Of a stretch of DNA of 64,000 nt, positions 1 to 49,598 are shown piece after piece. Source of the stretch: Nemertoderma westbladi (Eukaryota; Animalia; Xenacoelomorpha). The notes under the pieces are model-generated. The model had not been told where the DNA came from. It was given only the letters and a program-made list of their open reading frames with translations, and ran no database searches. Position 1 is the stretch's first letter; every line of letters begins with the position of its first letter. Location of the stretch: NCBI GenBank assembly GCA_032718475.1, contig JAUCBJ010000788.1:143188-207187 (forward strand), written 5' to 3'. A program made the position numbers and the translations under genes.

Positions 1-882
1 AAGGGTTCGATCATCGAGAACCAGTACGGCTTGGCTAGGGGTCCGTCGGTTCATCGCAGAGACCCAACCACCTAGGCTTTCTGAGTCCTTATTCAGGCTC
101 GTAGTCGCTTCGGCAGCCGAGAAACTGCTCCGAACAGTCGGTAGGCCAGTAGAGTCCAGTCCTTTGTCTTTCGACCCCGTCGCGTGTCCATCCCACCCCT
201 CACGAACCCCGAAGGGAACGATCATCGAGAACCAGTACGGCTTGGCTAAGGGGTCTGTCGTCGGTTCCCGTCGCAAATCCCTAGTACAAGCAGCCGGCGT
301 TCCGATGTCCTTTTCAGGCTCGTAATAACTGCTGTTGACCAGAGACCGCTAAGTGCAGTCCTCGTCAAACCCTTCCTCTGTAAGTCGGCCGCCCTTTCGC
401 GTGTCCGTCCCACCCCTCGCGAACCCCGAAGGGATCGGTCATCGAGAACCAGTACGGCTTGGCTAAGGGGGCTGTCATTTCCCGTCGCAAATCCCTGACA
501 CAAGCAGCTGGCGTTCCGATGTCCTTTTCAGGCTCGTAATAACTGCTGTTGGCCAGGGACCGCTAAGGGCAGTCCTTGTCCTTTAGGCCTGGCGCGTTAC
601 CAAATCTACCTCTACAGGCAGCAGGAAGTTGGCCAGGGCCTAATAGTACTCAGGCTAACCTGAATACTGCTAAATTTTGTCTCCCACCCCTGGCCCTTAT
701 AAACATGAAATTATTCCCGTACCCTGTAAGTCGCCCCAATATTCGCCCATAAATCGCCCCCAGTTCATAGAGTGTGCCCAAAACCCATGGTCCCGCACCC
801 AGTAGTGATATCGGAATAATCATTTTAAATAAATACAAAAAATATTCAACTCGCGTTATGAAAAGTTGAAATACCGGAAACA
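1..882 (-). repeat. 3' LTR (partial) of the BEL/Pao element
   Basis: Begins TGTTTCCGG on the minus strand right after the PPT. Matches the 5' LTR except for one fewer internal repeat unit and small indels. Confidence 0.93.
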
Positions 883-893
883 GTCCCCCCCAA
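883..893 (-). other. Polypurine tract
   Basis: Minus strand reads TTGGGGGGGAC immediately before the TG start of the 3' LTR. Confidence 0.8.
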
Positions 894-1058
894 TGACCTT
901 CGTGAGGTCTATCGGTAGATTGAGTTTGCGTAGGTCATTCCCAATATAAAAAACCCAAATTTAATATTGCATAGTCTTGATTAATTTGGCCTAGAGTTTA
1001 TATATATATATGTATAAAAATAAATGTTCAATAAATGTTCCTGGAATATCCCGATCCA

Positions 1059-3655
1059 CTATTTCTTTCTCTGATACGCCTTTCGCCTCTTCGCCCATCG
1101 GCTCTCGTCGATTGCTATAGCTGGTAGAGGAGCGTCAACATCCATCGTGAGCAACGCTTCGGCTTGTCTCCTGCCGGCTCTTCCTTTCGATGGCATCGGG
1201 ATCATATCGGTTCATCGTTCCAACTCGGAGTTGCGAGCCTCAAGGAACCACTCTCCGTCACTGAACTCCTCTTTATACAAGTATAAGCGTCTAAGGACTT
1301 TGAATGGGCCGAATAATCCGGCGCTCAGCAACAGATCCACGTAATGGAAAGGCAGCGTGGCCGTCGTGTGGAGGCGTTCCGGGAATGAGAAATACCCGCA
1401 CACCATCTCCTGCGCGATATTCCGAGCGTTTCTCCGAACCTTGGTCTTTATGTGGCTGTTTGCGTATGTTTCAAACATGACCATATTTCCCATAGCGGTA
1501 ACGTCTTTGGTAGGACATTTGATATAGCAGCGGGGGCTAGCGGAATGTCCACGGAAACCGCACGTGGTGCAGAGGTTATATAGGATCGGACAGACGGAAA
1601 CGTCGTGGCCCGATGTCGCGCAGTATGGGCAATAAAGTATCCCGAGGAGCTGGAGGCATGAATCGGTAACCCGATTCCTTCTACCGCATGGGCACTGCTC
1701 CGAACCGCAGTTACCGCACACCTCCAACTGCATCTCTCGACCGGGGAATATCGGAATCGGGACGCCGACGTAATACTCGAGTCGTCGGTCGCTCTTCTGA
1801 ATATTCGCGGTGGTCGGTAGCCCGCGGAAGGCTGGGCTTTGGCGTAGTAGTTCTTCGCTCCGATAACCTTCTTTGTGTCCCGTCGGTCTCAACTCGGACG
1901 ACCGTTTCTGGCGGTGGATCCATTCGGTTTGCTCGGCGTACCAACGGGTTAGTCGCATAGGATCCTGAGGAACGGAGGGTGTAGTAGCCACCGCTGGTCG
2001 GTGAAGAGGTGCCGGGGTTTTCGACCGAGGGATACCGAGGAGATCGTCGGGAGTCGGCGCAGCGCTGGGACCCTTTTCAACCAGTATCGCTGAGCAGGGC
2101 CGTTGGTTGCTGGTACTTGGAATCTCCGAAGACCAGTCTTCGCCACCCAGGGAAAAGATATGGTGATAACCTTTGGCATATATCGCCGAAGTCGCTCAAC
2201 GCGGAGGTGGTGATTAACTCCCTCGCAGGGCTACCGGAGCCGAGTGGGGATAATACGCCTGCTTCCGTCATAGGTTCGGCCGAAGCAATCCGTTTGGCGG
2301 CCGGTTGGTAAGCGGCCTCCGGCTCGAGTTGTCGCTTCGGGGTGGAGAGTAGAACACCCTCATGTAGCCATAGTTCTTCCCCTTCCGAAGAAATCAGAGG
2401 CTCCTCCGCACCGAGAAGATCGGTAATCGTAGGGATGTCATAAGGTCCGCTCTCGTCCCAGGAATCGATAACGGCGAGCGTTTTCGTCTCTCCCGGTGTA
2501 ATGTTCTCGACCGCTTTGAATGCGTGGTTTATAACCTCGTTCCAGTCGTAGTCGACGAAGGAAAGGGGAACCGCCGTAATGAGGTTATCAAGAGTTTTAC
2601 AGATAAACTTAGCGACGGTGTAGCACTCCATAGCGACGTAGATGTAGTTCCGTCGATCGGGATTCTCCCACCTTTGGTGTATCGTCCACTTCCGGTCAAC
2701 GTCCTTCCATCGACCCTCTTGCTCGCTCTTTATTTCTAATCCCGGGTATCATATATTTTATTATAATCCCGGAATTTCTGGGGTTTGAAGTCGATGCCGC
2801 CGTTTAGCACGGCGAGGTAGCCGATCCCGGATTTCGTCAGTCTCACCTCTCGGAATCCTCGCATGAACTTGGCGAATCGTAACCAGGCTAATAGCGTTTG
2901 AGTGTCGACGCAATGGCTAAGGGCGTTGAGGTCGTCTCGTCAGTTTCTTCCTGAAGGAGCGTTCGCGTAGTCGTTCCGGACGTCCACCTTTATATCCAAC
3001 CCGATTTTAATGACGTCGAAGTCGAAGAGGATCTTTTGGATTTCTGGAGGTAGCAACCAGATCGCTCCGGCTGCCTGCACTTCCTGTCTGGGTGTCGGAA
3101 ATATTCGATACACCAATACCAAACCGTCCAGGGTTCCGAGGACGACGACCAAGGATCGACCGTATTCTTTCGCCCCGTATTTTTCTTGGTAGTCGTCGCG
3201 ATTCTGGATGATCGATATACGTTCCTCTCGAAGCGTCGCCGTACACTCCGACAGGTTTCCCCAGTGGGCGAGGTACGTACTCTTGTCGTCGACGAAACTT
3301 TGACATCTCGCCAACGTAATCGCTTTCGAGGTGGGCGTCGCGTTTCCCTCGTTGTCGTAGATCAAACATCGGATCTGTAGACACTTTGCCGGAACGTTTC
3401 CCAGTACGACAACTCGTCCCCTCCGGTAGCCTTTGCGTTCCGAGTTCTTTTCAGTCTCGTACTAGCATTGGCCAACTGGAGGGCTCGTAGATTCCGGGAA
3501 TCCGGTCCCTCTCGCCCGGTGAATTTAACGACTCGCACGTTCTCATTTATCAGGGCGTTCCAATTCGTATCAAAGTTAGGGGATCCAGGTTGCGGATATT
3601 CCAGTAGATCTATCGTATTACGTAATTCGCCGATAATTTGGCGATTTGGGTCCAT
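1059..3655 (-). pseudogene. Disrupted accessory ORF of the retrotransposon: DEDD-type 3'-5' exonuclease-like domain plus CCHC zinc knuckles
   Basis: The ORF pieces tile without gaps. ExoI-like LIYDNEG; LLPPEIQKILFDFDVIKIGLDIKVDVRND (ExoII-like); CVDTQTL; W..YIYVAMECY (ExoIII-like). Later CPYCATSGHDVSVC and CTTCGFRGHSASPRC, ending in basic KRRKAYQRKK. In-frame TGA at 2940 and 1212; frameshifts near 3363, 2750 and 2077-2195. Confidence 0.75.
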
Positions 3656-4207
3656 ATTTACAATTATGTCCGTTGCAAATTATATCAGTTAATTATAAAT
3701 CCAGAAAGTCTGAAACTATAGTGATTGCAGAATAATTCAGTTTATTTTTAGTTCAGTTTATTAAATAACATTGCTATATAGGCATCTATCATCTTATTGC
3801 TAATACATTCAGCATTTACAGTTACTATAGCTATACATTAATATCCAACCAGTTTTTATGACTTTTTATGTCCTTTCTTTTTTCCAATTCTTTTCTTTAG
3901 ACCTTTTTATACCTTTTTTTTGTCTTTTTTCATTTCTCATTATTATTTCATCTCATTTCATTTATTTCAACATATTTCAACACATTTAGTTCCACCATTT
4001 ATTTCACATTTATTTCCACATTTCATTGGGGTTATAGCCCCCCGGCTATCATCATTTGTTATAAGCGCAGCACCAGGGTACGCATCATTACATTTTCATC
4101 ATCATACGTGTCATCATTCAGGTTTATAGTAGAGTTGTCTGATTCTTTTCATCATTTCCAACTATATTCAATCATCTTCTTTGGGAAATCTTTGTCGTGG
4201 AAGGGGT

Positions 4208-4618
4208 GTTACGCGGCAATCTGGGATCTACAGCTGGGCTAGTTACACCGCCTATGCCCCAAACTGCGCACGTAACGGACAATGAAGACGCTGGAAGTGA
4301 AGTCACGTGGATGCACCAGGGACCCACCAGAATAACACTCCCAACAACATAAAGCTCAGTCGACGAAGTCATGTGGGATGGGGTTACGCAACATTCTGGG
4401 ATCTACAGCTGGACTAGTTACACCGCCTACGCCCCAAAATCCACGCAACGGTCCCACCAGAATAATGCGACTGAGAAACATAAAACCCTCTATCGTCGAA
4501 GTCACGTGGATGCACCATGGACCCACCAGAATAACGGGATAGAGGGGGTGTTGCGCGGCAATCCGGGATCTACAGCTGGACTAGTTACACCGCCTACGCC
4601 CCGAACTGCGCACGCAAC
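4208..4618 (-). repeat. Three copies of a ~68-nt hairpin motif, plus a second shorter repeated motif, between pol and the accessory ORF
   Basis: Copies at 4208-4276, 4383-4449 and 4550-4618 share a nearly invariant core (plus strand GGGATCTACAGCTGGRCTAGTTACACCGCCTAYGCCCC) with self-complementary flanks. Confidence 0.85.
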
Positions 4619-4938
4619 GGACAACATAACATACTGCGATGAATACAATGAATTCCACTTCAAATCTTTTCCATTTCCAATAATCCAATAGCGTTGGTCC
4701 CGATGACCAAAATCAGGGTAAACTATACATAAACGACCCTGCGTCAGTCGAAACATCTGCAGGGTGACGCTGGACTCCACATAACACACGAGGAAACACA
4801 AATACCATTGCGTGGTTACAGTTGGTTTAAGGGGGGTCCATTTTCATTGTCGATAAATCACAGTTTAAAAGAGTTTGTCAACATGATGAGAAGGGTTTAC
4901 ACGGGTTTATAATTGTCACCAATGTCTGCAGCAGGATC

Positions 4939-5316
4939 TTAAGTAGGGAACTTATCACCTCTCGTAGAGTCAACACTGTCATTGCCTTCGAGAAGGCACA
5001 GCCTCTGGATAGGGCGTTGGTAGTGGCCCTTTGCCATTCGTATCGTCACAGTCCTCGCAAGTCCGTCTTTGCTCGGGTGTATTGTCACAACTCGCGCCAC
5101 AGGCCAGTGGACGCGGTCTTTAAGGTCTTCTTTTACTAGTACCATGTCGCCAACTTCGACATTCCTGTAGGTGTTGTTCCACTTCCTCCTGGTCCGGAGG
5201 GTTATGAGGTACTCCTGGGCCCAGATTCTCCACCAATGCGCTGCCAACGCTTGGGCCTTCTTCCAGTTTGTATGTCTCGCGATATCGTTGGGATAATGAC
5301 ATGCGGATAGGGACAA
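4939..5316 (-). CDS. pol: Frameshifted C-terminal segment of BEL/Pao pol (DUF5641-like region after integrase)
   Basis: WKKAQALAAHWWRIWAQEYL..VGDMVLVKED..WPVARV..DGLAR..RPIQRLCLL is the typical BEL C-terminus. It is out of frame with the main ORF after an apparent deletion near 5300. Confidence 0.85.
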   Translation of the reverse strand: MSLSACHYPNDIARHTNWKKAQALAAHWWRIWAQEYLITLRTRRKWNNTYRNVEVGDMVLVKEDLKDRVHWPVARVVTIHPSKDGLARTVTIRMAKGHYQRPIQRLCLLEGNDSVDSTRGDKFPT

Positions 5317-8300
5317 TGGGTCGGTTGTTCAGGGTAGCCGTGATCTCGCAGAATGTTGTGCGGAGGGTGTCATGGGTTACCCGGATGTCTCCTAGAGCGA
5401 CGCGCATGGATCGTTTCACTAGGTCGATCAGTTTCTCCCATACCCCGCTCGTATGGGCTGCTAAGGGGGTCTGGAAGTGCCACTGTATCTGGTGTTCCTT
5501 CCAGACTTGGGATGCGGTGTTATCGGTAAACCATCCCTCGATCGCCTCTCTAAGTTCTCTTTCTCCTCCCACAAAGTTTGTGCCATTATCGGAATACATG
5601 TGACGACATGTCCCATTGCTTGCCACGAACCGACGCAGAGCGTTGATGAATGCGTGTTGCGTAAGGTTCACCACAATGTCTAGATAGATTGCCCTAGACC
5701 TAAGGCACGTAAATATGGCCCACCAGCATTTGATGTTGGATCGTCGTTCGATGACCGTAAACGGTCCGAAACAGTCCACTCCGGTGATGTAGAACGGTGG
5801 GGAATCGGGCTGTAGACGGGTGGCTGGTAAGTCGGCCATCTTTTGTGTGAGTGGTGGCGCTAAATATCTTCTGCAGGTAAAGCAACGTTTCAACACTTTC
5901 CGGATCAGTGGCTGGATGTGTGTGATCCAATATCTTTGTCTTATATTAGCTATAATCCAGTTTTGTCCTGCGTGATGGTTTTCCTCGTGACATTGTTGAA
6001 TTAATAGCTTGGCTAGTGTCGAAGTTCCAGGCAGAAGCGCCGGGTATTTAACCTCATATTCGACCGGGGCATTTGCCATCCGGGTATTCAGTCGGATCAG
6101 TCCGTCCTCTCCCATCATTGGTCTCAGTTGGTAGACTGGGCTGTCCGGTTTCAAGGTCTTGCCCGCACTGAGTTGTTCCCACTCATCGGGGAAACTTTCT
6201 CTCTGGACATATCCAACGATACACCTCTCCGCGATAATGAGTTCTTGTATACTCCGTTGAACTATCGGCTTGTTGTCTTTCCACCGTAGGAAGTTGCGAA
6301 GGGTTATAACGTGGTGGATGAGCCGTCTCATTGATGAAGTTCGCTCGATCAACAGATGTAAAGACGCCGCTGGTTGAATGATCGTCGCAACGTTATAGTG
6401 CCTGCCCGAGTCCTTTGCAGGCTCAGTCAGACAACTATAAATTTCCACTGCGTTGCTTCTATGGACTTTACGGATCTCTTTATCGTCCTCGGAGTATTTT
6501 CCGCTATCGAGTTCAGGGTCGAATCGGGTACTCCATGTTAATTGTGGCTGCTGTAGGAATTCCGGGCCTGTAAGCCAGAGTTTACTTTTACCGAGTTGTT
6601 TTGGGGTGGCGCCTCGGCTTGATAAGTCCGCTGGATTTTCTTTCCCGTTTATGTGGTGCCACTGTTCTCGGCCGGTACACTGTTTTATCTCCGTGGCTCG
6701 GTTCTCTACAAACGTAGTGTGACGTCGGGATGGAGAGTGGAGATAGTAGAGAACGATACTCGAATCGACCCAGAAGTGTTGAGATTCGATGGGGATTCGT
6801 AGGTTCCGCATGACCATGCGGTTCTGTCTCACTGCCCAAACTGTAGCCTGTAGCTCGAGTCTTGGAATCGTTGCTACGAATTCCCCGGATACTGTCTTGG
6901 CTTTAGAAAATAAAAAGCTCGTATCGCCGTTTCCGTCGTTGCTTAGTCTTCGTAAGAAGGTGACTACGCCGATTCCGGTATTCGAAGCATCCGAGAAGGT
7001 ATGGAGCTGGAAGATATTGGTGGGTAGTTTATCGAGGAAGAACGGTCGAGGGATCCGCATAAGATGTAGGTGTTCGAGCTGGTCCGTCCATTTTCTCCAT
7101 TTGACGCTGAGGTGTGGGGGGAGTTCTTCATCCCATCCCAGTCCTTCTATCCACATTTCTTTAATCAGGTTCATTCTGGCCAAGGTTACCGGAGATATGA
7201 AATTTAGTGGGTCAAAGATTGTGCTTTTTATCGACAAACATCCCCTTTTCATCATAGGCTTGGGTAGGGGTTTATATTTGAAAATAAATTCGTTTGATTC
7301 TATGTCCCATTCAATACCGAGTACACGGTGTTCCACATCCTCTGAGTACATTTTGTTGTTGTCCAGTCGGATGTCCTCCGGAAACTTTTCCATAAGTTTC
7401 TTGTCGTGGGATCTGAACTTCACGAGTGGGAAACCTCCTTTCTTTAAACATTCTACCATCCCCATTGCTAGCCGATATGCCTCATCCACATTGTCTGCGC
7501 CAGCGCATCCGTCATCCACGTAGAAGCATCGTCGGATGGTTTCTATGACGGTAGGAGGGAACTCGTTTTCGCACATGGTTGCCGTCTTTTTCAGCATGTC
7601 ACTACATGCTACCGGCGAGTCCTTAGTGCCGAAGATCCTGACGATCATACGCATTACGTCTACATCCTTCATTGTAAGTTGACTAATCTCCTGTTGAGTT
7701 AGTATTTTATCCGTCCATAGGATACGTAGACAATCTGAGTCTCTTGGTAGCGTACGAACTTGGTAAAACATGGCTTTGATGTCGCAGGTGAATGCTATCC
7801 GGTTTTCCCTGAACCTGATCAATACGCCAATGAGTGTACTATATATGTTGGGCCCCGTATAAAGCTGACTATTCAGGGATTTGCCTTGATACATAGCAGC
7901 GGCATCATTAACTACTCGGATTTTACCACCCTTCCGGGCTTCTACCACGTAGTGGGTTGGAAGATAATATGTTCTTTTACCCCCTTGCAGTTCATTCCGT
8001 GGTACCATTTCTGCTAATCCGTCGTCGAGATATCCTTGGATTACGGTATTATATTTCTCCTTTATCTCAGGTTGGTCATTCAGCCGGCGTAGAATCCCCT
8101 TAAGTCGCCTAAGGGCCATGTTGGCGTTGTTTGCCATTGGTTTATTTGGGTCCTTCCACAACATGGGGGAACACCAGTGTCCGTCGTTGAACGTGGCCTG
8201 GTCCAGGACGTCCATACAATATCGATCCTCCTCGGACGGGTTTTCGTCCTTTTCAGCGAACTCTTGGGTCTCTAGATTAAAGTATTTAGTCATCTCTTGC

Positions 8301-8932
8301 TGGGTTTTTTCGGTCTCAAGAAATAAATCCTCATCGAGGTCTGTAGCTGAGCAATAACCCACGGATGTTGCATTTTCTTTAATCTGACATTTAGGAAGGT
8401 ATGTATAGGTGTCAGTAGTCTCTTCCTTGATGCCGCAGAGGGTCCATCCCATTATTGTTCGTTCAGCGTAAAAGCCGTCATCCTTCTTTATGGATCGGGC
8501 GACATCTCCGGTTGGTATGTGTAATTCCGGTGTATCAAGTCCGATCAGTAGGGTGATGCGGTTTACGTCCAACTGCGGACACCTCAGATCTACATCGTCT
8601 CGGTCCAATTGTATGAGGGGGGCGTACTCGGCTGATTGTCGGAACCGCACTCGGAGGTCTGTGTGTACCAAGGCGTTCTTGATGGTTAGCTTAACCGTTT
8701 CGTAGCCCTTCATTACTCCTTCCATCTGGAGTTGCACCTCCCCGGACTCTACCTCTCTGTTATTGGTGATGGTTTGTATGGGCCGTTTACAAGGTTCATA
8801 TTCTAGGCCGAGTTGCTCGAGGAAATCCCGGTCGATGATGGTTCCGTCAGACCCGTTATCAAGGAACGCGAGCGTCGTCAGGGATTTGCCGACTCCTTGA
8901 ATCCTTACTGGGATTACCTTTGCGAAGACCAT
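5120..8932 (-). CDS. pol: BEL/Pao Pol polyprotein (protease, RT, RNase H, integrase); frame open upstream to 9067
   Basis: LDNGSD protease; DIKAMFYQ and YVDD RT motifs; FSDAS..RLELQA..VDS..NPADLSSRG RNase H; HHCC zinc finger; integrase D-D-E in GVDCFGP, SDNGTNF and WEKL. Confidence 0.96.
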   Translation of the reverse strand: MVFAKVIPVRIQGVGKSLTTLAFLDNGSDGTIIDRDFLEQLGLEYEPCKRPIQTITNNREVESGEVQLQMEGVMKGYETVKLTIKNALVHTDLRVRFRQSAEYAPLIQLDRDDVDLRCPQLDVNRITLLIGLDTPELHIPTGDVARSIKKDDGFYAERTIMGWTLCGIKEETTDTYTYLPKCQIKENATSVGYCSATDLDEDLFLETEKTQQEMTKYFNLETQEFAEKDENPSEEDRYCMDVLDQATFNDGHWCSPMLWKDPNKPMANNANMALRRLKGILRRLNDQPEIKEKYNTVIQGYLDDGLAEMVPRNELQGGKRTYYLPTHYVVEARKGGKIRVVNDAAAMYQGKSLNSQLYTGPNIYSTLIGVLIRFRENRIAFTCDIKAMFYQVRTLPRDSDCLRILWTDKILTQQEISQLTMKDVDVMRMIVRIFGTKDSPVACSDMLKKTATMCENEFPPTVIETIRRCFYVDDGCAGADNVDEAYRLAMGMVECLKKGGFPLVKFRSHDKKLMEKFPEDIRLDNNKMYSEDVEHRVLGIEWDIESNEFIFKYKPLPKPMMKRGCLSIKSTIFDPLNFISPVTLARMNLIKEMWIEGLGWDEELPPHLSVKWRKWTDQLEHLHLMRIPRPFFLDKLPTNIFQLHTFSDASNTGIGVVTFLRRLSNDGNGDTSFLFSKAKTVSGEFVATIPRLELQATVWAVRQNRMVMRNLRIPIESQHFWVDSSIVLYYLHSPSRRHTTFVENRATEIKQCTGREQWHHINGKENPADLSSRGATPKQLGKSKLWLTGPEFLQQPQLTWSTRFDPELDSGKYSEDDKEIRKVHRSNAVEIYSCLTEPAKDSGRHYNVATIIQPAASLHLLIERTSSMRRLIHHVITLRNFLRWKDNKPIVQRSIQELIIAERCIVGYVQRESFPDEWEQLSAGKTLKPDSPVYQLRPMMGEDGLIRLNTRMANAPVEYEVKYPALLPGTSTLAKLLIQQCHEENHHAGQNWIIANIRQRYWITHIQPLIRKVLKRCFTCRRYLAPPLTQKMADLPATRLQPDSPPFYITGVDCFGPFTVIERRSNIKCWWAIFTCLRSRAIYLDIVVNLTQHAFINALRRFVASNGTCRHMYSDNGTNFVGGERELREAIEGWFTDNTASQVWKEHQIQWHFQTPLAAHTSGVWEKLIDLVKRSMRVALGDIRVTHDTLRTTFCEITATLNNRPIVPIRMSLSQRYRETYKLEEGPSVGSALVENLGPGVPHNPPDQEEVEQHLQECRSWRHGTSKRRP

Positions 8933-8973
8933 GTAACGGCGATTTATAAGATTAATCGTGGCTGAAATATTTG

Positions 8974-11475
8974 TTACTTGTGGTGTATCGGTGGAGATTT
9001 TAAATGGGTTGGTTTCTCTCCGTTGGGTTGTCCGGGTTCCTTTAAAAACGTGGTTTGTTTCTCCTCTTCACTTGGCTTCGATCCGAAAGGGGAGGGTGTA
9101 GTGAAATCGAAGTTTGTGGGGATGTGGAGGAGCGTGTGATGACGTAGGTCATTACAGACCGCACAGCACGATCTTTGGTCACAATCCCGAACATAGTGAC
9201 CTGTTCCAAGACACCGGAAGCATCCTCGGTGTTTCATTATCGCCTCGAAGCGTGGGACGAGTTCGGCGAACTGGAACTTCCTGCAGAATTCCACTTTATG
9301 TTTCTCTCCACAGAAGAGACAGAGGAGGGAGTTTGTGATGCCTTCCCTCTCGCGTGCCCAATTCGCAAGGTAACACGCCCATTCCTCGGCTGATGTCGGT
9401 TCCTCGTAGTCTTCGTCGTCGGAATCCTCGGCCATGGTGGTGGCCATCGTAATCACCGGAGGAGGGCAAAATCTCGGTTTCTGAGTGGGTGTCTTACTCC
9501 TGGAGTTGTTCTCTATTCCGTCCAACTTGGCGAGACTCTGTTTCGAGAACATCGAGTCATTCATGGCTTCAGAGATATCGTCCAGGAATGCTGACATTTC
9601 GAGGAAGCTGGGATCTCGATCTGGGTGTCTGCGCCAGAGATCTACGCATTTATACGCCCACTTACTTTGTAACCATCCGGGGAATTTCCGGGCGATCTGT
9701 CGGAGGTTTAGAATGTTGTTCACTTGTTCCTCCTTATTTAATGGTTTCAGAGTGTAGTAGGCATCCTTCATCGAGTCCGAGAAATCTTGGATATTCTGTG
9801 GGTCCCCTAGGGATCCCGCATCCTGGATCAGTTTCTCGAGGGTTTTATTAATTATAGTCCCGATATTTCCGTATCTTTTATCTAGAGTCTTCCATGCGTC
9901 ATAGTATGCTTCATGAGCTCCTCCTTCAAAGCATGCGATAATTCGGCGTGGTTTGTCACCCAGGTATTGTGATAAATATACCAGTTTCTGTGCGTCGGCT
10001 ATGTCCGTTGATCCAATCTGCGCAAAGAACCGTTTCTTGAATCTGAGGTAATCGACGGGATCTCCTTCGAAGGTGCGGATCTCCATCTTGGGCATGGAGA
10101 GGCGGTTTTCCAATGCCCGGATAATGCCGACGTCGTCAGAACTGGAATGACTAGGGGGGTTATAATTATCGGCACTCTCTCCCATACACGATGGATCGAT
10201 GATAGGTGGAGTTTTAATGATGACGCGGCTACGGCTTTGTGGTGTGGACGTAAACAGGTTGTTGGATCGGGGAGTGGCGATCCGTTCCGAGTCCTTTTCA
10301 GGCTCGTACTTGGGGACGCTCGGGACCGTAGAAGTGGCTGGGATATAAGGTTCCTCATTCTTTAGCGTAGCCGGTGGGAGATGGAACACCAGTGCTTGTG
10401 CCGATAACGTAGACTGTATGGTAGGCGGGAACTCGGGTTTCGGGGGTTTCACCGCCGGTGTCGTTAATGACTTTTCTAATTCCGGTACCGGTATTGGTTC
10501 ATAATTCTGATCTATATCCCTTTCCCAGTCCTCGTAGAGTTGAATATCTCGTTCTATAAGTGCGGCTTCGTACTCCGCGAGTTTCGCGATATCCGCATTC
10601 TTTTTGTGTATAAAAATCGCTTGGGCCTCGGCGTGTTGTTTACGCATTTCAGCTTCCCATTTACGTTGTTCGATCTCTTGTTGGGCCTCTCGTTCACGTT
10701 GTTTAGCTTCCTGATCACGTTGCTCGGCCTGTCGTTTGGCCTCTCGTTCATGTTGTTCAGCTTCCTGTTCACGTTGTTTAGCTTCCTGTTCACGTTGCTC
10801 GGCCTGTCGTTTGGCCGCTTGCTCGGCCTCTTGTTTTTGCATTTCGGTGGCCATTACATCTTGCTCGGTTCGCAGTTGAACATACTCATCTTCCATCCGA
10901 GCTTTGAGGGCTAATGCCTTCTGTTCTCGTAGCTGATCTCGGAGTGGCGGCCCCCCTTGAGAACTGCGCGCTGAGCAGGATATCTCGCTCCTAGCGCTGG
11001 AGCGCTGGTGTCTTGAGGACCCCGTTTTCTTTCGATGAATTGTGGTCCTGGTGTTGGAGGTTCGCACCGATTCTGCGTCTGTTCTTTCAGTTCTCTTGTA
11101 GTACTGTTCTTCGTAGCCTCTCACGAGGCTAAGGGTCCTCCGGTGTTGTTTGCGGAATTCGTCTAGGCGTGCAACGTGTTCTTCCAATTTGGGATAATTT
11201 ACCTGGTCAGTGGCGGGGATGAGTTCTTGGTACGCCTGTATCATTCTCTCATATCTTTGTAAGATACTTTGAATACTCTGAAGCTGAGTTTGTATCTCGT
11301 TGAGGGGGGTTTCGACTCCCTTGAGTTGTTTCTCTATACGTTGATACGCTCGTGTGACTCCGCCTTTGAGAGCACCTAGTCGACGAGCCATGTTCTTGAT
11401 GTTCTGTACCTCGTCGGTTTCCGAGTCTGTGTGGTGATCCATCTCATCGGTATCGGATACGTTATTTGTCGTCAT
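8974..11475 (-). CDS. gag: BEL/Pao Gag (coiled coil, DUF1759-like core, three Cys-His motifs)
   Basis: TFEGDPVDYLRF..KLVYLSQYL..AWKTLDKRYG; CLFCGEKHKVEFC, CFRCLGTGHYVRDC, CAVCNDLRHHTLLH. Confidence 0.95.
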   Translation of the reverse strand: MTTNNVSDTDEMDHHTDSETDEVQNIKNMARRLGALKGGVTRAYQRIEKQLKGVETPLNEIQTQLQSIQSILQRYERMIQAYQELIPATDQVNYPKLEEHVARLDEFRKQHRRTLSLVRGYEEQYYKRTERTDAESVRTSNTRTTIHRKKTGSSRHQRSSARSEISCSARSSQGGPPLRDQLREQKALALKARMEDEYVQLRTEQDVMATEMQKQEAEQAAKRQAEQREQEAKQREQEAEQHEREAKRQAEQRDQEAKQREREAQQEIEQRKWEAEMRKQHAEAQAIFIHKKNADIAKLAEYEAALIERDIQLYEDWERDIDQNYEPIPVPELEKSLTTPAVKPPKPEFPPTIQSTLSAQALVFHLPPATLKNEEPYIPATSTVPSVPKYEPEKDSERIATPRSNNLFTSTPQSRSRVIIKTPPIIDPSCMGESADNYNPPSHSSSDDVGIIRALENRLSMPKMEIRTFEGDPVDYLRFKKRFFAQIGSTDIADAQKLVYLSQYLGDKPRRIIACFEGGAHEAYYDAWKTLDKRYGNIGTIINKTLEKLIQDAGSLGDPQNIQDFSDSMKDAYYTLKPLNKEEQVNNILNLRQIARKFPGWLQSKWAYKCVDLWRRHPDRDPSFLEMSAFLDDISEAMNDSMFSKQSLAKLDGIENNSRSKTPTQKPRFCPPPVITMATTMAEDSDDEDYEEPTSAEEWACYLANWAREREGITNSLLCLFCGEKHKVEFCRKFQFAELVPRFEAIMKHRGCFRCLGTGHYVRDCDQRSCCAVCNDLRHHTLLHIPTNFDFTTPSPFGSKPSEEEKQTTFLKEPGQPNGEKPTHLKSPPIHHK

Positions 11476-11663
11476 TGTAGCACCTCGTCGATAGCTAGAT
11501 ATGCGATGTCGTAAAACAGTTCCTCGTAGGTATTGTACTCAGCTTGGACCACCCGAACGGTAATCCTGAATCGTCCGACGTTCGTTCCTTGTACTTCAAC
11601 CTCGACGTGCCAGATTCCTGGCTCAACTTGGATTATATCAATGGGTGTGATCGATACTTCCAT
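11472..11663 (-). CDS. Small ORF (63 aa) upstream of gag, its stop overlapping the gag start (ATGA)
   Basis: ATG-initiated with protein-like composition; its TGA overlaps the gag ATG. No recognisable motif. Confidence 0.4.
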   Translation of the reverse strand: MEVSITPIDIIQVEPGIWHVEVEVQGTNVGRFRITVRVVQAEYNTYEELFYDIAYLAIDEVLQ

Positions 11664-12266
11664 TCCCTGTTAACAACTCTCCAAATATGTGATCTGTCGA
11701 CTACGAGTTGGTTAGATTGAGTTTGTTGATTAATTAAACCACGACTTAGTCTTAACTCAAATACCAGAGTTTCCTCGTAGTGGGTGCTGGCAAGCATGTA
11801 GAGAGTTTTGAAGAGTATTGTAGGATTCTCAACTTCCACCATTTGCAGTTGGCCGCGTTTTATTCTCAATTTTGACACCCTGTCAAAATTGACCGTATTA
11901 ATTCTCAATTTTGACACCCTATCAAAATTGACCGTTTAATTCTCAATTTTGTTGCCGTTATCCCGACACCAGGGGGGAAAAACGCCGATGCTGGAGGCGG
12001 GGCTTTACAGACCACGGAGTCCCGGCCAGTCACCGGATATTGATTGTGGAGAAGGAGGAATTTCTTAGATGCAGGATTGCGGTTAAGGAAAAGTTGCATT
12101 GGTTGGATATACTCTTTAATGTAACTTCCTATAGTTGAACCCTGTTCAACATCATTGAACCCTGATTGAGAATTAATTGGGCTTCCCCAAATCAATATAC
12201 ACCAAATATTCACAATAATTATACACGACAATATAAATCCCTACAGTATATTATTTAATTACCCAC

Positions 12267-13635
12267 TGTTCGCTCAGATTTTAGCCTAACTAATGTTCCC
12301 CAGATTTTCCCTCGGTCCAAGTCTTGATGCCGTAGTGTCGGATGTCGGTCGACCCTGTCGCGTGTCCGTTCCACCCCTCCCGAACCCCGAAGGGATCGAT
12401 CATCGAGAACCAGCACGGCTTGGCTAAGGGTCGGTCCAGTCGGTAGACTCTGTCGCGTATCCGTACCACCCCTCTCGAACCCCGAAGGGATCGGTCATCG
12501 AGAACCAGTACGGCTTGGCTAAGAGTCTGTCGTGTCGGTGGACCCATTCGCGTGTCCGTCCCACCCCTCCCGAACCCTGAAGGGTTCGATCATCGAGAAC
12601 CCGGCTTGGCTAGGGGTCCGTCGGTTCATCGCAGAGACCCAACCACCTAGGCTTTCCGAGTCCTTATTCAGGCTCGTAGTCGCTTCGGCAGCCGAGAAAC
12701 TGCTCCGAACTGTCGGTAGGCCAGTAGAGTCCAGTCCTTTGTCTTTCAACCCTGTCGCGTGTCCGTCCCACCCCTCACGAACCCTGAAGGGAACGATCAT
12801 CGAGAACCAGTACGGCTTGGCTAAGGGGTCTGTCGTCGGTTCCCGTCGCAAATCCCTAGTACAAGCAGCCGGCGTTACGATGTCCTTTTCAGGCTCGTAA
12901 TAACTGCTGTTGACCAGAGACCGCTAAGGGCAGTCCTCGTCAAACCCTTCCGCCCTTTCGCGTGTCCGTCCCACCCCTCGCAAACCCCGAAGGGATCGGT
13001 CATCGAGAACCAGTACGGCTTGGCTAAGGGGTCTGTCGTCGGTTCCCGTCGCAAATCCCTAGTACAAGCAGCCGGCGTTACGATGTCCTTTTCAGGCTCG
13101 TAATAACTGCTGTTGACCAGAGACCGCTAAGGGCAGTCCTCGTCAAACCCTTCCGCCCTTTCGCGTGTCCGTCCCACCCCTCGCAAACCCCGAAGGGATC
13201 GGTCATCGAGAACCAGTACGGCTTGGCTAAGGGGGCTGTCGTTTCCCGTCGCAAATCCCTGACACAAGCAGCTGGCGTTTTCAGGCTCGTAATAACTGCT
13301 GTTTGCCAGGGACCGCTAAGGGCAGTCCTTGTCCTTTAGGCCTGGCGCGTTACCAAATCTACCTCTACAGGCAGCAGGAAGTTGGCCAGGGCCTAATAGT
13401 ACTCAGGCTAACCTGAATACTGCTTAATTTTGTCTCCCACCCCTGGCCCTTATAAACATGAAATTATTCCCGTACCCTGTAAGTCGCCCCAATATTCGCC
13501 CATAAATCGCCCCCAGTTCATAGAGTGTGCCCAAAACCCATGGTCCCGCACCCAGTAGTGATATCGGAATAATCATTTTAAATAAATACAAAAAATATTC
13601 AACTCGTGTTATGAAAAGTTGAAATACCGCGAACA
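12267..13635 (-). repeat. 5' LTR with six copies of a ~70-nt hairpin core; inner boundary uncertain
   Basis: Matches 1-882. Minus-strand start is TGTTCGC and a matching inverted terminus GCGAACA ends at 12267. TATAA-like box near 13451-13456. Confidence 0.85.
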
Positions 13636-15001
13636 ATCTTCGCAACCTTAACCTTGCAGATGACTTTCGCAGTTCGCATAAAGAGATTGGTGTTCTCATT
13701 GGGGCAGATTTGTACAACAATCTTGTTGATGCTGGAAATGTCCGCAAGGGGCATCTATAAGTGATCAGCCTGTTGCTACAAACTCTGTCTTTGGTTGGTT
13801 GTTAACAGGACCAATAGAAGAATCCGAAAATATGTCGACAGAAAATACACCTTAGTTGCTAGCAATGATACCTGTGATTGTGCAAGAGAATTAACAAAGA
13901 TTCTCAAGACATTTTGGGAATTGGAATTAGCTGGAGTTTCAACTCCTGATCATGTTCATAGCAATTTTTGTAAGGAAATCATGTTTGAAAATGGGCGATA
14001 CTCAATAAACTTGCCATGGAAAGACAATGTAGCGCCACTTCAAAATCATTACTCACTTTCACTTGGACGTTTCCAATCATTGGTTAAACGTTTCTTACGC
14101 AACCCCACACGTTATCATCGTTACAGTGAGGTTCTGAGTGACTACTGTTAACGCGGTTTTTTTGAAGAAGTTAATGACCCAAGTGAATCATGTGGCATCA
14201 CTCATTATATCTCTCATCATTGTGTTATAAGGGAAGATCACAACACAACAAAGCTGCGAATAGTATTTGATGGTTGTGCCAGAGACTCAAAACAAGATTT
14301 ATCACTCAATGTCACATTGTATACTGGCCCTTCTCTGGTATCAAATATTGTTTCGATTATGATTCGCTTTCGCTTGTATCAGTATGTACTGTTGGCAGAT
14401 ATTGAAAAAGCATTTCTTATGGTTTCAGTAAACTCTGAACATCGTGATGCTTTAAGGTTTTTATGGATGCAGAATCCTTTAGATCAAGCCAATGATACTG
14501 TCAAGGTTTATCGGTGGTGCAGAGTTCCATTTGGATTAAACCCATCCCCTTTCTTATTACATGGTACTGTTAGTCATCATTTATCTGAGGAAAACAAATC
14601 ACCACATGTCAATGATGCTCCTAGTACTGCAATCAATGTACTAGGCAATGATTTGTATGTTCACAACTTGCAAACAGGGGCAGACACAGTCAACAAAATA
14701 TTATCATTGTATTATTATACAAAGACTATGCTCTTGAGAGGTGGATTTAATCTTAGGTCCTGGGAATCAAATTCTCTCCCAGCAAAACACATTATACATG
14801 AGTGTGAACAATCGATTGATAGCGTCCACAAGCCACCTCAAGTCCCAATAAATTCACTTTCCTCCCATTCGTTTACACTCAATCAAATGAACACTGACAA
14901 TAGCTACATAAAGGTATTCGGCATTGAGTGGTCACCAATGCAAGATGATTTCAAATACTCATTTAGATATATCCTTCAGTTAATTGACACACTCCCACCT
15001 A

Positions 15002-16017
15002 CAGTACCGCTTTCAAATAACGTCGTATTGGATCCTAATAGGATCCTATTAGGATCCAAGTCACTGATTCACTACTATTGGAGTTAGGATTTAATTGGAA
15101 ATGAAATTTAGCCCAAATTCCAGACTTGGAGGCACTTAGGATTTGACTTGGATTTCATTAGGAATTTACTTGGAAATCGGCGCTTACTTTGATGGCTGGA
15201 AGGTGGACTGACTCAGACTATGCTTGTGCTGGTCCACTTCTTCTCTATCCTGTCAATCATTAAGTTGTATAGAATGGAGTAGACTCAGCCAAAAGTTTGC
15301 GTAGTGTTCAGTTCTTTACATTGAGGTATGGTTGTCGATGGAAGATTACACTCCTACTGTACCTTGTATTGCCAGCCTCTGACATAAATAATATTTAAAA
15401 TATAAACTCTAATAGATGAAATCCACACATCCGCACATAGTTAACGTCCGTAGGCTGCTGCTGGTGGGCTCTGGAATAATTTAAAATCGTATTGAACTTA
15501 CAAATAAATGTAGGATCACACACTGTATTTATTACTATTGAACATATTTTGAGTAATAAAGAGTAAAACACGATGCTTGTGTAATTATTAATAGAATAAA
15601 TATTAGTTTATTTCATAATTAGACAGGGGCTAAAACTGGGCGACTAAATAAATGTATGTTATCCACGGGAAATTTTCATTCCAATATAACAAGTTCCGTA
15701 TTTAAACATAACACCCACAAAGCACATTACACTCTCCAAGCAGATTCCGCAACATGTCACAATCCGTATCGCTACCACTACGAAAAATAAAGCGGACAAA
15801 GTAAGCGGATAAAGTAGACAAAGCGGCTCTCTTTACTACTTTCAGCTATCCCGGGAGGTTGATTGACAAGACACTTCTAAGCTTTGATATTTAGCCGCTC
15901 TAGGTAGACTTACATTAGGCAAATTCCAAGTGATTTCCTAAAGGCTATTTATTTCCTATTAGGATCCTATTAGGATCCTATTAGGATCCAATAGGACGTT
16001 ATTTGAAAGCGTTACTA
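15002..16017. mobile_element. Non-autonomous TIR element (Tc1/mariner-like MITE), TA target duplication
   Basis: TIRs CAGTACCGCTTTCAAATAACGTC..GGATCCTA and TAGGATCC..GACGTTATTTGAAAGCGTTACTA, flanked by TA. Removing it restores the BEL frame PPTKRSILKITGRIFDP. Confidence 0.88.
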
Positions 16018-16260
16018 TACTAAACGTAGTATACTCAAGATAACTGGCCGCATCTTTGATCCAATGGTTTTTTTTAGCCCCATTGTCACCCAGTTAAAGG
16101 TATTATTTCAAGAACTTATTGAATTCAACTGGGACAGTGTATTGTCACCAGATTTAAACAAAAGGTGGAAATCTTTCATTTAAAACCTGGCATCATTAAA
16201 TGATATTACCATTCCAAGGATTTACTTTCCAGATTCAAATGCATTTGTTTCTCATTTAGT

Positions 16261-18480
16261 ATTATTATTATTATTATTCCTTTGGTACCCATAGTGATTG
16301 CACGAATGGGGAAGTCTCTTTCTCTACACAAGGTAGGGACTTATAATTAAGGAAATTATATGTAAAGGTGTCTACAGTATTTCACCGGTAACCAACAAAA
16401 TTAAACACTATATCATCGCTAAAGTACGCGACGATATTAGTAAATGTCTACATACATAACCGGTAAATAATTAAAATATAAAAAATGCAGCGTCGCCAGA
16501 TTGAAAGTTTGTTTTCCTTTACAGTACGCAGTTGTGATAGTTCCGGTGTGAGCCATTGCACGTCGTTACCACGGTATGTTTGTTTATTACTTACAGTTTT
16601 ATACTTAATTGGTGCGTGTTTGTTTAAAATTGTTTCTAACTGATTTTCAAAGAAATTAATTTTTGTATTCGTATCATTTTCATTATATAAGGGATCCCAA
16701 TTTATTTGTGAAATATCAAATAGAAATTTAGATTCGGAAAAAATTGAAAAGTCCCTATAGGATATTTTTTCGTTAATTTTTAATTTGGAATTAATTTTCA
16801 GGTTCAAAGAGGTAAGCGTGTACTCATGGTCTGAGAAATCACAGAAGAAGACCAGACTTTCAATGATGTGTGCGCTGGGGATATTTGACAGTACTAAATC
16901 TATTAATGTTTCAGATGATTTTGTGTAACGAGTAGGTATAGTGTTGTTTAATGATTTTATGTCGTATGTATTTAGTATTTCGTGGATATCGCGTGTAGTT
17001 TTATTTTTTGTGTCTAATAAGTTAATGTTGAAATCACCTTGTAAGATAATACTATGATTTGGTTCGAGCAATAGTGCGTTTTCTATTTCGCTACTTATTT
17101 CATCTAAGTATTTGATTTTTGCACGTGGAGGTCTATATACTGTAGAGATTAGTAAGTTATCTACTTCTACCCAGATAGACTCGATGCTGCTGTTCTTTTC
17201 TTTTATATCAGTACGTAGTTTACTGTTCATTGTATCGGGGACATATATCATTACACCTCCACCACGACGCTTTTTTCTGTCAAGTCTGTATGTTTTAAAT
17301 CCAGCAATATGTAAAGCTGAGTCTGGTATGTTTCTCTTAAGCCAGGTTTCACTAACTGATGCAATAACATTCCTCGACCCCAGCAAGACCTCTTTAAACT
17401 CATCTATATTCTTAAAGAGACTGCGAGCGTTTATATGGATACATTTTAGGTGATCCGGATGGTCTTTTATATAGTTTTTTATATCTGTAATAGAGTTAGG
17501 TAATTTAGATTTGCTATCTGGAAAATAAAAATTTGGTAAATTATTAATATTTATTTTAGTCTTATGTTTATTTTTTTGGTAGTTTCGTTTCGGTCCTGGG
17601 TTGGGGTGTACGGTACCTGAGATTATGAGTAACATATGCACAGTGAGAGCGATTATGTTGAGTATGTCAAGGACGGAGGAACGATAAATGTTAAAGGCTT
17701 GAATAGTTGCATAAAATATTAGAGTCATCTTATTTCTAAGTTGTTTGCTTTTTGTTGATATATGCCATTTTGTACTTTGTTTTACATAAATTAAATTTCC
17801 ATTAGTAATTAAATAGATGAATAGTGTTTGTAAAATGGGGTATTGTGGAAAACGAGGTTTACGGTTAAAGCCTGGAAGTTTGTAGAGTGAAAGTGATGAT
17901 ATAGTAGTCAGTATAACTAATGTAGGATTAATAGTAAAGAGAGTTATCAGGGTGGTACTCAATACACCTGAGTATAAATTCAATGAGATAGGAAATAACA
18001 CAAGACACACTAACAGTACAATACTCACGATGCGGGAGATAAGGCGCCATTTAGTTTTCTTAATTAATTTATGTTTGGCGAAGTTTGACCTTACACGCCA
18101 CCAGTGTATGGAATGAGTTTGCTGGTATATATAATCGATTACGATAATTACCGGTAAATAAAGTAAACTCACGAAAAATATGATCCCGTGTAATATAAGG
18201 GATATAATAAAGTAGTTGCAATATATTATTAGTAAAAACAATAATCTCTTAAATATTGAGGTTTGGGACATAATATATCCAATTGGCAGAAGCCAGACTG
18301 TCGGACAGATAAAAATTATACCGTTTATATCGACCTGGTTAGGCAAATATGTGAATAATGAATTAACGGTAAAAGTTAGCATACTGGTTCTAATATTAGT
18401 ATTAAGGACATCACTAAGATTCATCAATAATATTAGCCATACTGTGAAATTCAATCTGGGTAGTGCAAAAAACTTATAAA
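16261..18480 (-). mobile_element. CR1/L2-group LINE with hydrophobic leader, 2A-like motif and APE endonuclease; RT absent; (TAA)n tail
   Basis: HINARSL, SVSETWL, RRGGGV, YRPP, GDFN, LIDL and FSDH endonuclease motifs; LLIISGTVHPNPGP; (ATT)6 at 16261; AGTA on both flanks; the BEL frame resumes at 18481. Confidence 0.88.
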
Positions 18481-20759
18481 GTAGAGTATGGAGAGTTACA
18501 TGCATTCGGGGATGCATCTAAAAAGGCATATGCAGCATGTATTTACTTGTGTTTGCGGAAACCAAATCAAACTAGTGGTTGCAAAGTCTCGTGTCGCACC
18601 TTTGAAGGAACAATCTTCATCGAAGTCTTCATCTAAGCCCCCATCAATGCCCCGTCTAGAACTATTGGCTGCAGTTTTGGCAGCTCGCTTGCTGAACACA
18701 GTTCTTGATTCTTTGCTACCACTGAAACTCACGCCTAAGTTTTTTTGTTGGTCTGACTCTCAAAATGTAATTTGTTGTATTCGCAATACAACCAAGGAGT
18801 TCAAACCATTTATCGAAAATAAGGTCCGCGAAATCCGATCCTTAACTCAACCAAATATTTGGAATCATGTTCCTGGAACTAGTAATACAGCAGATGTGGC
18901 AACTCGTCCAATTTCACACGAAAAATTTCGTGATTGTAGTATGTGGTGGTATGGCCCATCATGGATACTAAACCCAGTTTCTGAATGGCCTTCCACTAAT
19001 AAGATAGAAATACAAGAACAACATCTACTTCAAACAACACTAGTTGTTGCAACAAACGACATTATAGAACCTACAAAACCATAAATTAATTCAGTGATAA
19101 ATTCAGAGAAGTTCAACTCTTACATGAAACTACTTCGCTGTACATGCTATGTAATTCGATTTATTAATAATTTGAAGTCAAAGGTTAAGGGTATAATACT
19201 AAAGAAACATATGGCCCAATAACCACATCTGAAATTCGATCTTTCGAGAAACTTTGGATTCGAGAAAATCAATCTATCGAATTTAAGACTAAACTAATCT
19301 ACATGAAATCAAAAGAAGGGAAACGTCCATCTCTTCTAAATAGTCTAAAGTTATTCTTGGATAAAGATGATATTCTGCGGTATGAAACTCGTCTTCAAAA
19401 TGCTCAATTGAAATATGATCAGATATTTCCTATTATTTTGCCCAAAAATTCACACCTTAGCTCATTAATCATCAGTGATGCTCACAATCAAGTTATTCAT
19501 GGTGGTGTTCAAGATACTCTAATACAACTACGGACACGTTTCTGGATACCACAGGGTAGACAACGTGTTAAGTCAATTTTGCTTCGCTGCGTACCTTGTA
19601 GAAGGATACAAGGATACCCTTACAGACTACCTCAAGTTCCACCCCTGCCTCCATTTCGTGTTGATCAGTCATATCCATTCGCCAATGTTGGAATTGACAT
19701 GGCTGGTCTACTTTATGTAAAGTCAGAAGTGTCTACTGACAGTACGTGGAAGGTTTACATTTGCCTTTATACATGCCCCAGCACAAGAGCAATTCATCTG
19801 AATTTACTTAACAATCTCACAAGTGAAACATTCATAAATTCGTTGAGGCAATTCATAGCTCGAAGAGGAGTCCAAATTCGCAATTTAATGTGGCTTTAGC
19901 CCCATGGTGGGGAGGCCTGTGGGAAAGGCTTGTTCAGTCAACCAAGAAATGTCTCCGCAAAGTCATTGGACGTGCCATTTTGTCATCTGATGATCTGAGA
20001 ACAATCCGTAGAAGTCGAAGGAGTTCTCAATTCAACACCACTTACCTATGTCGACACTGAAGATAACGTTGACATATTAACTCCAACTCATCTTCTTTGT
20101 GGCCGTCGCCTAGGTTCACTACCTGATGAGACTGAAGTATCTGAACAATTGAGTGCAACTCAAAACAGTCGTAGACAATCTTACAAACTACGAAAGAGTT
20201 TGATAGCTCAATTTTGGAAATCTTGGTTAGATGAATATCATTGTTTCATGAAAAGTCAACATTGGACTAACACTAAAGACAACAAATCCAATATCAAGAT
20301 TGGAGATATTGTTATTATACATCAAGCTCAAAACCTCGTGCTTTCTGGAAGTTTGGTCGGATAGCAAAACTTATCCATGGCCGAGATGAGCGTGTCCGTG
20401 CAGCTGATGTCACAGTAGGACTAAAAAAGGTCGGAAACCATATTATACAGCGACCAATAAGTATACTATATCCCCTTGAAGTTCAATCATAAAATGCAGG
20501 TGGATTAGTACTAAAAATGTTGAACTCAGAACCAAATGCACTACCTACTTAGACATGTTTGTTATTAATATTGATTGATATATTTCATAGTTTATACAGT
20601 ATAATTTTAGAATACCATTACATAGTGGAATATAATTATTTTTTGCATATTGTCAAACTCATGTATGAATATTACATATTCATGGTGGGGAGATGTTGGA
20701 GATTTATATTAGCTTTTATAAACATTCTTCCGTAGTTTTTCGAAACATTATAATATCAT

Positions 20760-28033: not shown

Positions 28034-28291
28034 CGTCGGTTTTATTAATGTGTATTTGTCGAGAAAAAAATAAAAACACTCTACTTATAAACTATTTTAA
28101 GCTTTCAGGTTGTTTTTACTGAGGTAAATACGGAAGTGGGTCCGTGGTAGTTGAGAGAAGGTATCAGACTAGGGATGTCAGATGTTGGCACATTCTGTAT
28201 TAATTAAGTGTAATTAAGCTAAATACAAAAGCACTGTTAACCTTTCAAACGCATTAATTGTAATGGTTACTAAATCAACTAATATAATATA

Positions 28292-49592: not shown

Positions 49593-49598
49593 TTGTCA

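Follow-up and report, generated by a model that had tools for sequence, protein, structure and literature searches.

A third open reading frame with predicted DEDDy-type exonuclease and CCHC knuckle domains in a BEL/Pao retrotransposon of Nemertoderma westbladi

Exonucleases of the DEDDy type have been reported as cargo of several mobile elements. In bdelloid rotifers, the long terminal repeat (LTR) retrotransposons Juno and Vesta and the Penelope-like Athena/Terminon elements carry such an enzyme, with a DEED motif, in a third open reading frame (ORF3); the authors present these exonucleases, in the available part of their paper, as previously unreported in retrotransposons, and leave their function open (Rodriguez, Kenefick, Arkhipova 2017, PMC5408684). 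The finding is repeated in passages of two reviews (PMC5718144, PMC6431247), and a third lists, in the section at hand, the DEDDy domain as a known LTR accessory (PMC6338049). The Dada DNA transposons of Laccaria and Ectocarpus are described, in the accessible portion of the report, as having a DEDDy domain inserted in the DDE transposase with all four DEDD residues kept (PMC3706591). CERV, encoded by the Caenorhabditis elegans element Cer1, has a G-protein-like fold and a shown role in genomic RNA export, according to the available text (PMC10309623). Here we describe a stretch of 64,000 nucleotides from Nemertoderma westbladi (GCA_032718475.1, contig JAUCBJ010000788.1, positions 143,188 to 207,187, hereafter the window), in which a BEL/Pao LTR retrotransposon carries, between pol and the 3' LTR where env would sit, an ORF3 predicted to encode a DEDDy-type exonuclease followed by two CCHC zinc knuckles.

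In this copy ORF3 is broken. An earlier annotation made from the letters alone (the sequence-only reading) had tiled its pieces into one frame, and three-frame translation agrees, giving about 864 codons on the sense (minus) strand of the element, with three frameshifts and two in-frame TGAs. The frame starts with an ATG at 3655 and ends with a stop at 1061-1059; the three shifts fall near 3370, around 2750 and at some point within 2195-2080, and the TGAs stand at 2942-2940 and 1214-1212. Every motif quoted in the earlier annotation is present, and the two knuckles (CX2CX4HX4C at 1631 and CX2CX4HX5C at 1571) and the basic tail (8 K/R among the last 14 residues) were likewise recovered. Third-position G+C, at 0.60-0.64 in the three tiled segments measured versus 0.53 in pol, is what would be expected of genuine frames. 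The parts of ORF3 and the spacer ahead of it are as follows.

1059..3655, minus strand: ORF3, broken; predicted DEDDy-type exonuclease, linker, two CCHC knuckles, conserved C-terminal domain, basic tail
3371..3655, minus strand: first segment of ORF3, from the ATG to the first frameshift; its end is the stretch predicted as helix before ExoI
3345..3368, minus strand: ExoI motif, Asp at 3356 and Glu at 3350, then about 55 residues inferred to be inserted in comparison with P0004, a relative (see below)
2943..3158, minus strand: exonuclease strands 2-4 and ExoII, Asp at 2984
2751..2939, minus strand: exonuclease strand 5 (DTQ motif) and subsequent helices, after the TGA at 2942-2940; score reached by 0 of 1000 shuffles
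2600..2748, minus strand: ExoIII region, Tyr at 2640 and Glu at 2628 for the usual Asp; placed by order and P0004 alignment, not significant alone
1527..1631, minus strand: two CCHC zinc knuckles
1325..1526, minus strand: C-terminal domain, conserved with P0004, matching no known family
3656..4938, minus strand: pol-ORF3 spacer; A-rich tract, 45 ATGs, five AATAAA, and a direct repeat of about 83 nt present three times

When 1.84 billion representatives were searched exhaustively, three matches came back, a single one of them real: P0004, a singleton of 648 amino acids from ENA. The other two, P0003 and P0005, were discarded because repeats had produced them by chance. P0004 is intact and consists of an exonuclease, a linker, two CCHC knuckles and a conserved C-terminal domain, in the same order as in ORF3. 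Three pieces of ORF3 align in order to this one natural protein, which argues that ORF3 is more than chance; for two of the pieces none of 1000 shuffles reaches the score. The pairwise expect value (E) of P0004 is 3e-8 against the exonuclease sequence of the window and 5e-11, at 33% identity, against the knuckles with the domain after them, a region outside the query that had found P0004. The ExoIII piece is not significant alone (112 of 1000 shuffles reach its score), and the upstream pieces of ORF3 alone give no significant alignment to P0004. The collections searched for relatives are mostly prokaryotic and viral; word-based protein searches yielded 0 of 735 candidates for the window piece and P0004 itself as the sole relative among 7,989 and among 10, no related loci were found in viral or metagenome contigs, no match was found in phages or plasmids, and weak matches (E 0.001 and 0.007) came from two prokaryote genomes out of 201.

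The assignment of ORF3 to the DnaQ/DEDDy exonucleases, proposed in the sequence-only reading, is supported by a profile match to bacterial members of the group. The reference set was composed of 70 bacterial PF01612 domains, a 34-sequence subset of which gave a second hidden Markov model (HMM), and the HHalign query profile contained P0004 and three window pieces as separate rows. Against the 70 domains HHalign reported a probability of 92.8% (E 3.9e-7, 144 columns), compared with 0.15% for the reversed alignment and 2.8% for the best of 30 block shuffles, and the HMM of the 70 domains placed P0004 first of 663 targets (E 7e-4). In a MAFFT alignment the residues D, E, K, D, K, L, Q and Y of P0004 occupy columns that are invariant over 55 sequences. 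Searches of the Atlas with the P0004 domain scored unnamed eukaryotic clusters at 0.95-0.94 and, at 0.94, a PF01612 cluster of whose members 34% carry the family; 25 of 30 matches lie in that set. When 54 of the 70 bacterial domains were supplied as the alignment for modelling the P0004 domain, the predicted local distance difference test (pLDDT) reached 80.6 and the predicted template modelling score (pTM) 0.78. This guided model has NrnC-type nucleases as its top matches (Z 16.8, root-mean-square deviation 2.7, 178 aligned), with Nibbler (Z 16.5), RNase D (16.0), RRP6 (15.5), WRN (15.3), Exd1 (15.2) and Egalitarian (14.5) also listed; EXD2 was first by Foldseek, viral 3'-5' exonucleases were matched in BFVD, and Pol I exonucleases were among the matches. 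These structural matches are partly circular, the model having been given a DEDDy alignment; they show compatibility with a DEDDy fold, are no independent proof and cannot pick a subfamily. A DEDDy-like fold is nonetheless considered highly probable.

The active site can be followed in both proteins. P0004 has D62-x-E64 as ExoI, an Asp in ExoII and Y229-x3-E233 as ExoIII, and in ORF3 of the window the residues are D3356 and E3350 (ExoI), D2984 (ExoII) and Y2640 and E2628 (ExoIII). That YDNE represents ExoI was substantiated by a register test, designed after the match had been seen, in which the stretch before the first frameshift plus the motif after it were compared with P0004: the score of 17 is reached by 0.04% of 34,067 background windows. 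YDNE stands about 55 residues further from strand 2 than ExoI does in P0004. A degenerate ExoI near 3218, at a P0004-like spacing from strand 2, was also tried and rejected, with a score of -2 versus 17 for YDNE. The register of ExoIII in the window was set by order and motif. The canonical Tyr-x3-Asp of ExoIII is replaced in both proteins, the Tyr being kept and Glu taking the place of Asp; the Asp-to-Glu change pointed out earlier is supported. The Glu is common to ORF3 and P0004, and most copies keep it. None of the five active-site residues is changed by any listed variant (at least 35% of depth, three runs). Since both have Glu in ExoIII, ORF3 and P0004 are best regarded as a DEDDy-like variant and not as canonical members. 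The sequence-only reading had left nuclease and pseudonuclease side by side; of these the pseudonuclease now appears less likely, with the Glu shared with P0004 and all four acidic positions filled in both. Because D-x-E of ExoI and D of ExoII are kept and the ExoIII Glu is common to both proteins, a dead enzyme is not the default reading. The D, E, D, E carboxylates and the DEDDy tyrosine are predicted to be able to bind metal, and, as far as the sequence can tell, catalytic activity of the ORF3 protein is moderately probable.

The element was found, wholly or partly, in four of the six DNA runs listed for one organism. In the three richest runs, 2,399-4,755 contigs with about 80-99% identity cover 900-5200, which indicates that the family has many copies and that ORF3 regularly belongs to it; these short contigs nowhere extend over the whole of ORF3. 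Comparison with these other copies, as the earlier annotation had proposed, shows that at four of the five ORF3 breaks their sequence is not that of the window: at both TGAs 99-100% of contig depth has another letter, and at the first two frameshifts high-depth contigs have an indel. Within 2540-3420 the listing of variants at or above 35% of depth contained 37 variable sites, of which 36 were kept after the frameshift site had been dropped, and 22 of these 36 are third-position sites (p 6e-4). Division of the nuclease-region variants at an author-chosen threshold, 98% of depth in run X1, separated variants common to a subset of copies, which are third-position in 21 of 29 cases (p 2e-5), from near-fixed differences from the window, third-position in one of seven. 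This codon-position pattern fits purifying selection on the family together with decay of this copy, with the reservation that high third-position G+C could somewhat inflate the signal. Moreover, ORF3 has five lesions in 2,597 bases versus one in the 6,538 bases of gag-pol (p 0.009), or two if the gag/pol shift is counted as a lesion (p 0.023); this excess suggests that ORF3 is dispensable in cis, the numbers being small and assembly error a possible source. We regard ORF3 as a genuine accessory gene under selection, of which the present copy is broken. In one sequencing run, LTR-like loose ends were seen within the start of ORF3.

HIV-1 nucleocapsid is matched by the knuckle pair of P0004 at E 1e-4, and Air2 weakly at E 0.064. 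CCHC knuckles of such type attach to single-stranded nucleic acid; Rrp6, a DEDDy enzyme, is supplied with RNA by Air2. For the C-terminal domain, profile and PDB searches gave no family and the Atlas search gave zf-CCHC leads below 0.9. A mechanism can be proposed in which ORF3 would be read from a subgenomic message of its own, either spliced or internally promoted, given that a spacer containing 45 ATGs and five AATAAA makes scanning from genomic RNA unlikely; an acceptor-like TTTCAG (motif only) is located at 3715-3710 and ends 55 bases ahead of the ORF3 start, with no ATG between. The knuckles would then grip single-stranded RNA and present it to the nuclease, whose target would be small RNAs or their precursors; intact copies would supply the protein in trans to broken copies, and RNA trimming would help the family against host small-RNA silencing. 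The three spacer repeats lie at 4200-4624, are about 83 nt long with a spacing of 167-175 nt, and show contig depth above their flanks, most in run X4.

We therefore offer, as a tentative preferred reading, that ORF3 is a broken copy of a conserved third gene of a BEL/Pao family whose predicted DEDDy-fold exonuclease and knuckles may act as an in-trans RNA-trimming factor against small-RNA silencing; that silencing RNAs are what it acts on is plausible and still somewhat doubtful. A more specific version, in which animal BEL/Pao elements would encode an undescribed family of single-chain RNA-degrading proteins that combine a D-E-D-E nuclease, Air2/nucleocapsid-like knuckles and a new C-terminal domain and destroy or mis-trim PIWI-interacting RNAs (piRNAs) or small interfering RNAs (siRNAs), is speculative and rather unlikely; if true, it would constitute a retrotransposon-encoded enzymatic suppressor of silencing. 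Whether piRNA or siRNA silencing is countered by suppressors that animal retrotransposons themselves encode is still unsettled.

Several results weigh against an active exonuclease directed at small RNAs. Motif scans alone found neither ExoI nor ExoIII in the window, no window piece has an exonuclease match in Pfam or NCBIfam, and sequence searches of PDB returned no exonuclease. Against the 70-domain HMM the window piece falls short of significance (E 2.7), as does P0004 against the HMM of the 34-sequence subset (E 1.7), to which HHalign gives 15%; P0004 against PF01612 itself reaches E 0.2 and 11.9 bits, below the Pfam gathering cut-off of 23.6. AlphaFold run on two sequences produced a model of pLDDT 36 without structural matches, and the circularity of the guided model counts here as well. 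At the ExoIII position 69 of the 70 bacterial sequences have Asp, and the Glu may impair catalysis. The matched fold also covers DNA exonucleases and inactive RNA binders. In the rest of ORF3, 11 of 27 sites, taken from the best 40 of 405 rows, are third-position (p 0.27), so that no selection is shown on the knuckle half.

Other explanations have accordingly been weighed against the same observations. An active exonuclease could serve the replication intermediates of the element itself, trimming the 3' end of genomic RNA or of the primer or polishing complementary DNA ends at strand transfer, with the knuckles as a nucleocapsid-like chaperone; the fold evidence is identical, WRN, Pol I exonucleases and EXD2 are among the matches, the knuckles resemble those of HIV-1 nucleocapsid, and 3'-end processing was proposed for the rotifer DEDDy ORF3s in the part of that paper at hand (PMC5408684). 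The excess of lesions over gag-pol, however, suggests that the protein is not needed in cis, and the survey of BEL/Pao elements, as far as its text is available, describes gag, pol and occasionally env only (PMC3118150), which leaves this role a possible one that we would not expect. It is also conceivable that the fold and the knuckles bind element RNA for its export, transport or shielding, as a pseudonuclease adaptor. Precedents for such roles are Egalitarian and Exd1, which have this fold and appear among the matches, and, with an unrelated fold, CERV of Cer1, an LTR accessory protein with an enzyme-like, probably inactive domain in the available description (PMC10309623); the Glu that stands where the bacterial sequences have Asp and the inferred 55-residue insertion after ExoI in the window point the same way. 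Nevertheless, two proteins with about 30% identity, and most copies as well, retain all four acids together with the tyrosine, and the rotifer ORF3s too have a D-to-E change, at another position, in the text consulted (PMC5408684), so that an adaptor is judged doubtful.

Simple decay of a captured gene that no longer benefits the family would account for the five lesions of this copy, more than in gag-pol, for the near-fixed differences of which one in seven is at codon position 3, and for the lack of a selection signal shown beyond the nuclease region. This passenger explanation is quite improbable in view of the other copies, which differ from the window at four of five breaks, of the shared variants, 21 of 29 of which are third-position, and of an intact distant relative, P0004, that keeps the whole layout. 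A divergent envelope or other membrane protein is suggested by the position between pol and the 3' LTR alone; a hydropathy scan found no C-terminal membrane anchor and no N-terminal signal-like stretch, and the sole hydrophobic window (KD19 1.88) aligns to exonuclease strands 2-3, which makes an envelope extremely improbable.

The host is one LTR retrotransposon on the minus strand that fills the first 13.6 kb of the window. Its BEL/Pao class, as claimed in the sequence-only reading, was established on Pao-type pol and gag family matches (Peptidase_A17, E 1e-36; DUF1759, 2e-13; DUF5641, 4e-30; Integrase_H2C2). By motif order its domains run protease, reverse transcriptase (RT), RNase H, integrase as in BEL/Pao (Belpaoviridae), and, again as in that class, two direct LTRs start with TG and a polypurine tract lies ahead of the 3' LTR. 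Three Cys/His knuckles at the end of Gag are a BEL/Pao feature, and they are present at the end of this Gag. The element is made up as follows.

12266..13635, minus strand: 5' LTR of about 1.37 kb containing tandem repeats of 95 bp and 203 bp; inner end approximate
8974..11475, minus strand: gag, open, with DUF1759 and three Cys/His knuckles
4939..9067, minus strand: pol, with protease (Peptidase_A17), RT with YVDD, RNase H, integrase D-D-E and a DUF5641 tail
883..891, minus strand: polypurine-tract-like G run directly before the 3' LTR
1..882, minus strand: 3' LTR, incomplete, running off the window start; TG start at 882, tandem repeats of about 214 bp

The two LTRs differ by 14 mismatches in 863 aligned bases, repeat-number gaps aside; their tandem repeats, of about 95 and 203-214 bp, lie at 180-580 and 12344-13333 and are unequal in copy number between the LTRs. 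At about 1.37 kb the LTR is longer than the 0.2-1.2 kb quoted for BEL/Pao in the available text of the survey (PMC3118150). In 12150-12345, after the 5' LTR, the longest pairing between leader and LTR is 8 nt and no clear tRNA primer-binding site was found, the inner LTR end being approximate and no host tRNA set being at hand; no tRNA gene was found in the window, and positions 1-14000 hold no Rfam family above chance. A peptide look-up in the supplement of the BEL/Pao survey gave no superfamily placement for the element. Pol has a single frameshift, near 5330. Gag and pol overlap in different frames. Close to where the pol frame begins, at 9052-9040 on the minus strand, there is a heptamer of slippery type that reads T TTA AAG in the gag frame; the 87 nt beginning there fold no better than shuffles (z -0.15). 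The gag/pol frame change is either a programmed -1 shift or a private lesion.

Next to the 5' LTR, at about 13640-19900, are the remains of a second BEL/Pao element on the plus strand, with nested insertions: an element of about 1 kb whose inverted ends measure 58 nt (15000-16019) and, on the minus strand, an ORF that includes an endonuclease domain (16448-18517). Further along, a fragment of iodothyronine deiodinase (PF00837, E 5e-8) lies at 27647-28084, and GC-rich ORF pieces at 30519-32749 and 42936-43343 look by eye like remnants of non-LTR RT and endonuclease, with no Pfam match. An uninterrupted ORF of 239 codons with three EF-hands at 39302-40021 resembles calaxin/EFCAB1 and may be a retrocopy or an intronless gene. 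A duplicated block at 48073-51283 and 53080-55063, with very long low-complexity arrays (GAC-type, hexamer units), adjoins a rhodopsin-family G protein-coupled receptor ORF and is possibly an assembly expansion. The EF-hand, receptor and deiodinase matches would be in keeping with an animal host.

Of the precedents named in the sequence-only reading, the rotifer one was confirmed in the available part of the report (PMC5408684), and the nematode one was not found in the literature searched; the catalogue of C. elegans transposons gives, in the portion at hand, no exonuclease for Cer13 (PMC11662393). The same literature, with subscription papers and Repbase outside its scope, contains no BEL/Pao exonuclease and no exonuclease-knuckle ORF3. 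The main text of the BEL/Pao survey, as far as available, does not contain the word "nuclease", and the element sequences in its supplement 1 may hold relatives (PMC3118150). Similarly to the env-bearing elements described in that text, the present element has an extra ORF in a BEL/Pao context; unlike them it shows no glycoprotein features.

The cellular enzymes of PF01612, namely RNase D, Rrp6, Nibbler/Mut-7, WRN, EXD2 and NrnC, share with ORF3 the predicted fold, the order ExoI-II-III, the DTQ strand and the tyrosine. Distinctive here are the ExoIII Glu, an insertion inferred after ExoI in the window, an insertion ahead of ExoIII, and knuckles where those enzymes have HRDC or helicase domains; identity to the five top-named structures is 13-18%. 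Dada likewise has a transposon-borne DEDDy domain, whereas that of ORF3 is not within a DDE transposase and has Glu as fourth acid. The top Atlas clusters for the P0004 domain are unnamed and, where a phylum is recorded, mostly Basidiomycota; a link of the P0004-type domain to Dada is a guess. CERV, which acts on element RNA, is like ORF3 a multi-domain LTR accessory protein with a Cys-rich module; its G-protein-like fold is different and no homology is implied.

The rotifer ORF3s are similar in that, in the part of the paper at hand, an RNase D-like DEDDy exonuclease with one acid changed from D to E is encoded in a separate ORF3 after pol that replaces env (PMC5408684). Juno, Vesta and Athena are set apart by their description from the host element here, which is BEL/Pao; the acid changed in their DEED motif is the third, whereas here it is the fourth, giving D-E-D-E, and the nuclease is fused here to two CCHC knuckles and a conserved C-terminal domain, unlike the rotifer ORF3s as that text describes them (PMC5408684). 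P0004 offers a naturally intact relative open to assay, and the shared D-E-D-E a testable active-site variant, while the added knuckles, being of an RNA-binding type, may point to an RNA substrate. Taken together, the exonuclease-ORF3 arrangement itself is known, and what is new is the BEL/Pao host, the fusion with knuckles and a C-terminal domain, and the D-E-D-E site; DEDDy ORF3 cargo, the role of which is unresolved in the available text of the rotifer paper (PMC5408684), is hereby extended to a BEL/Pao family.

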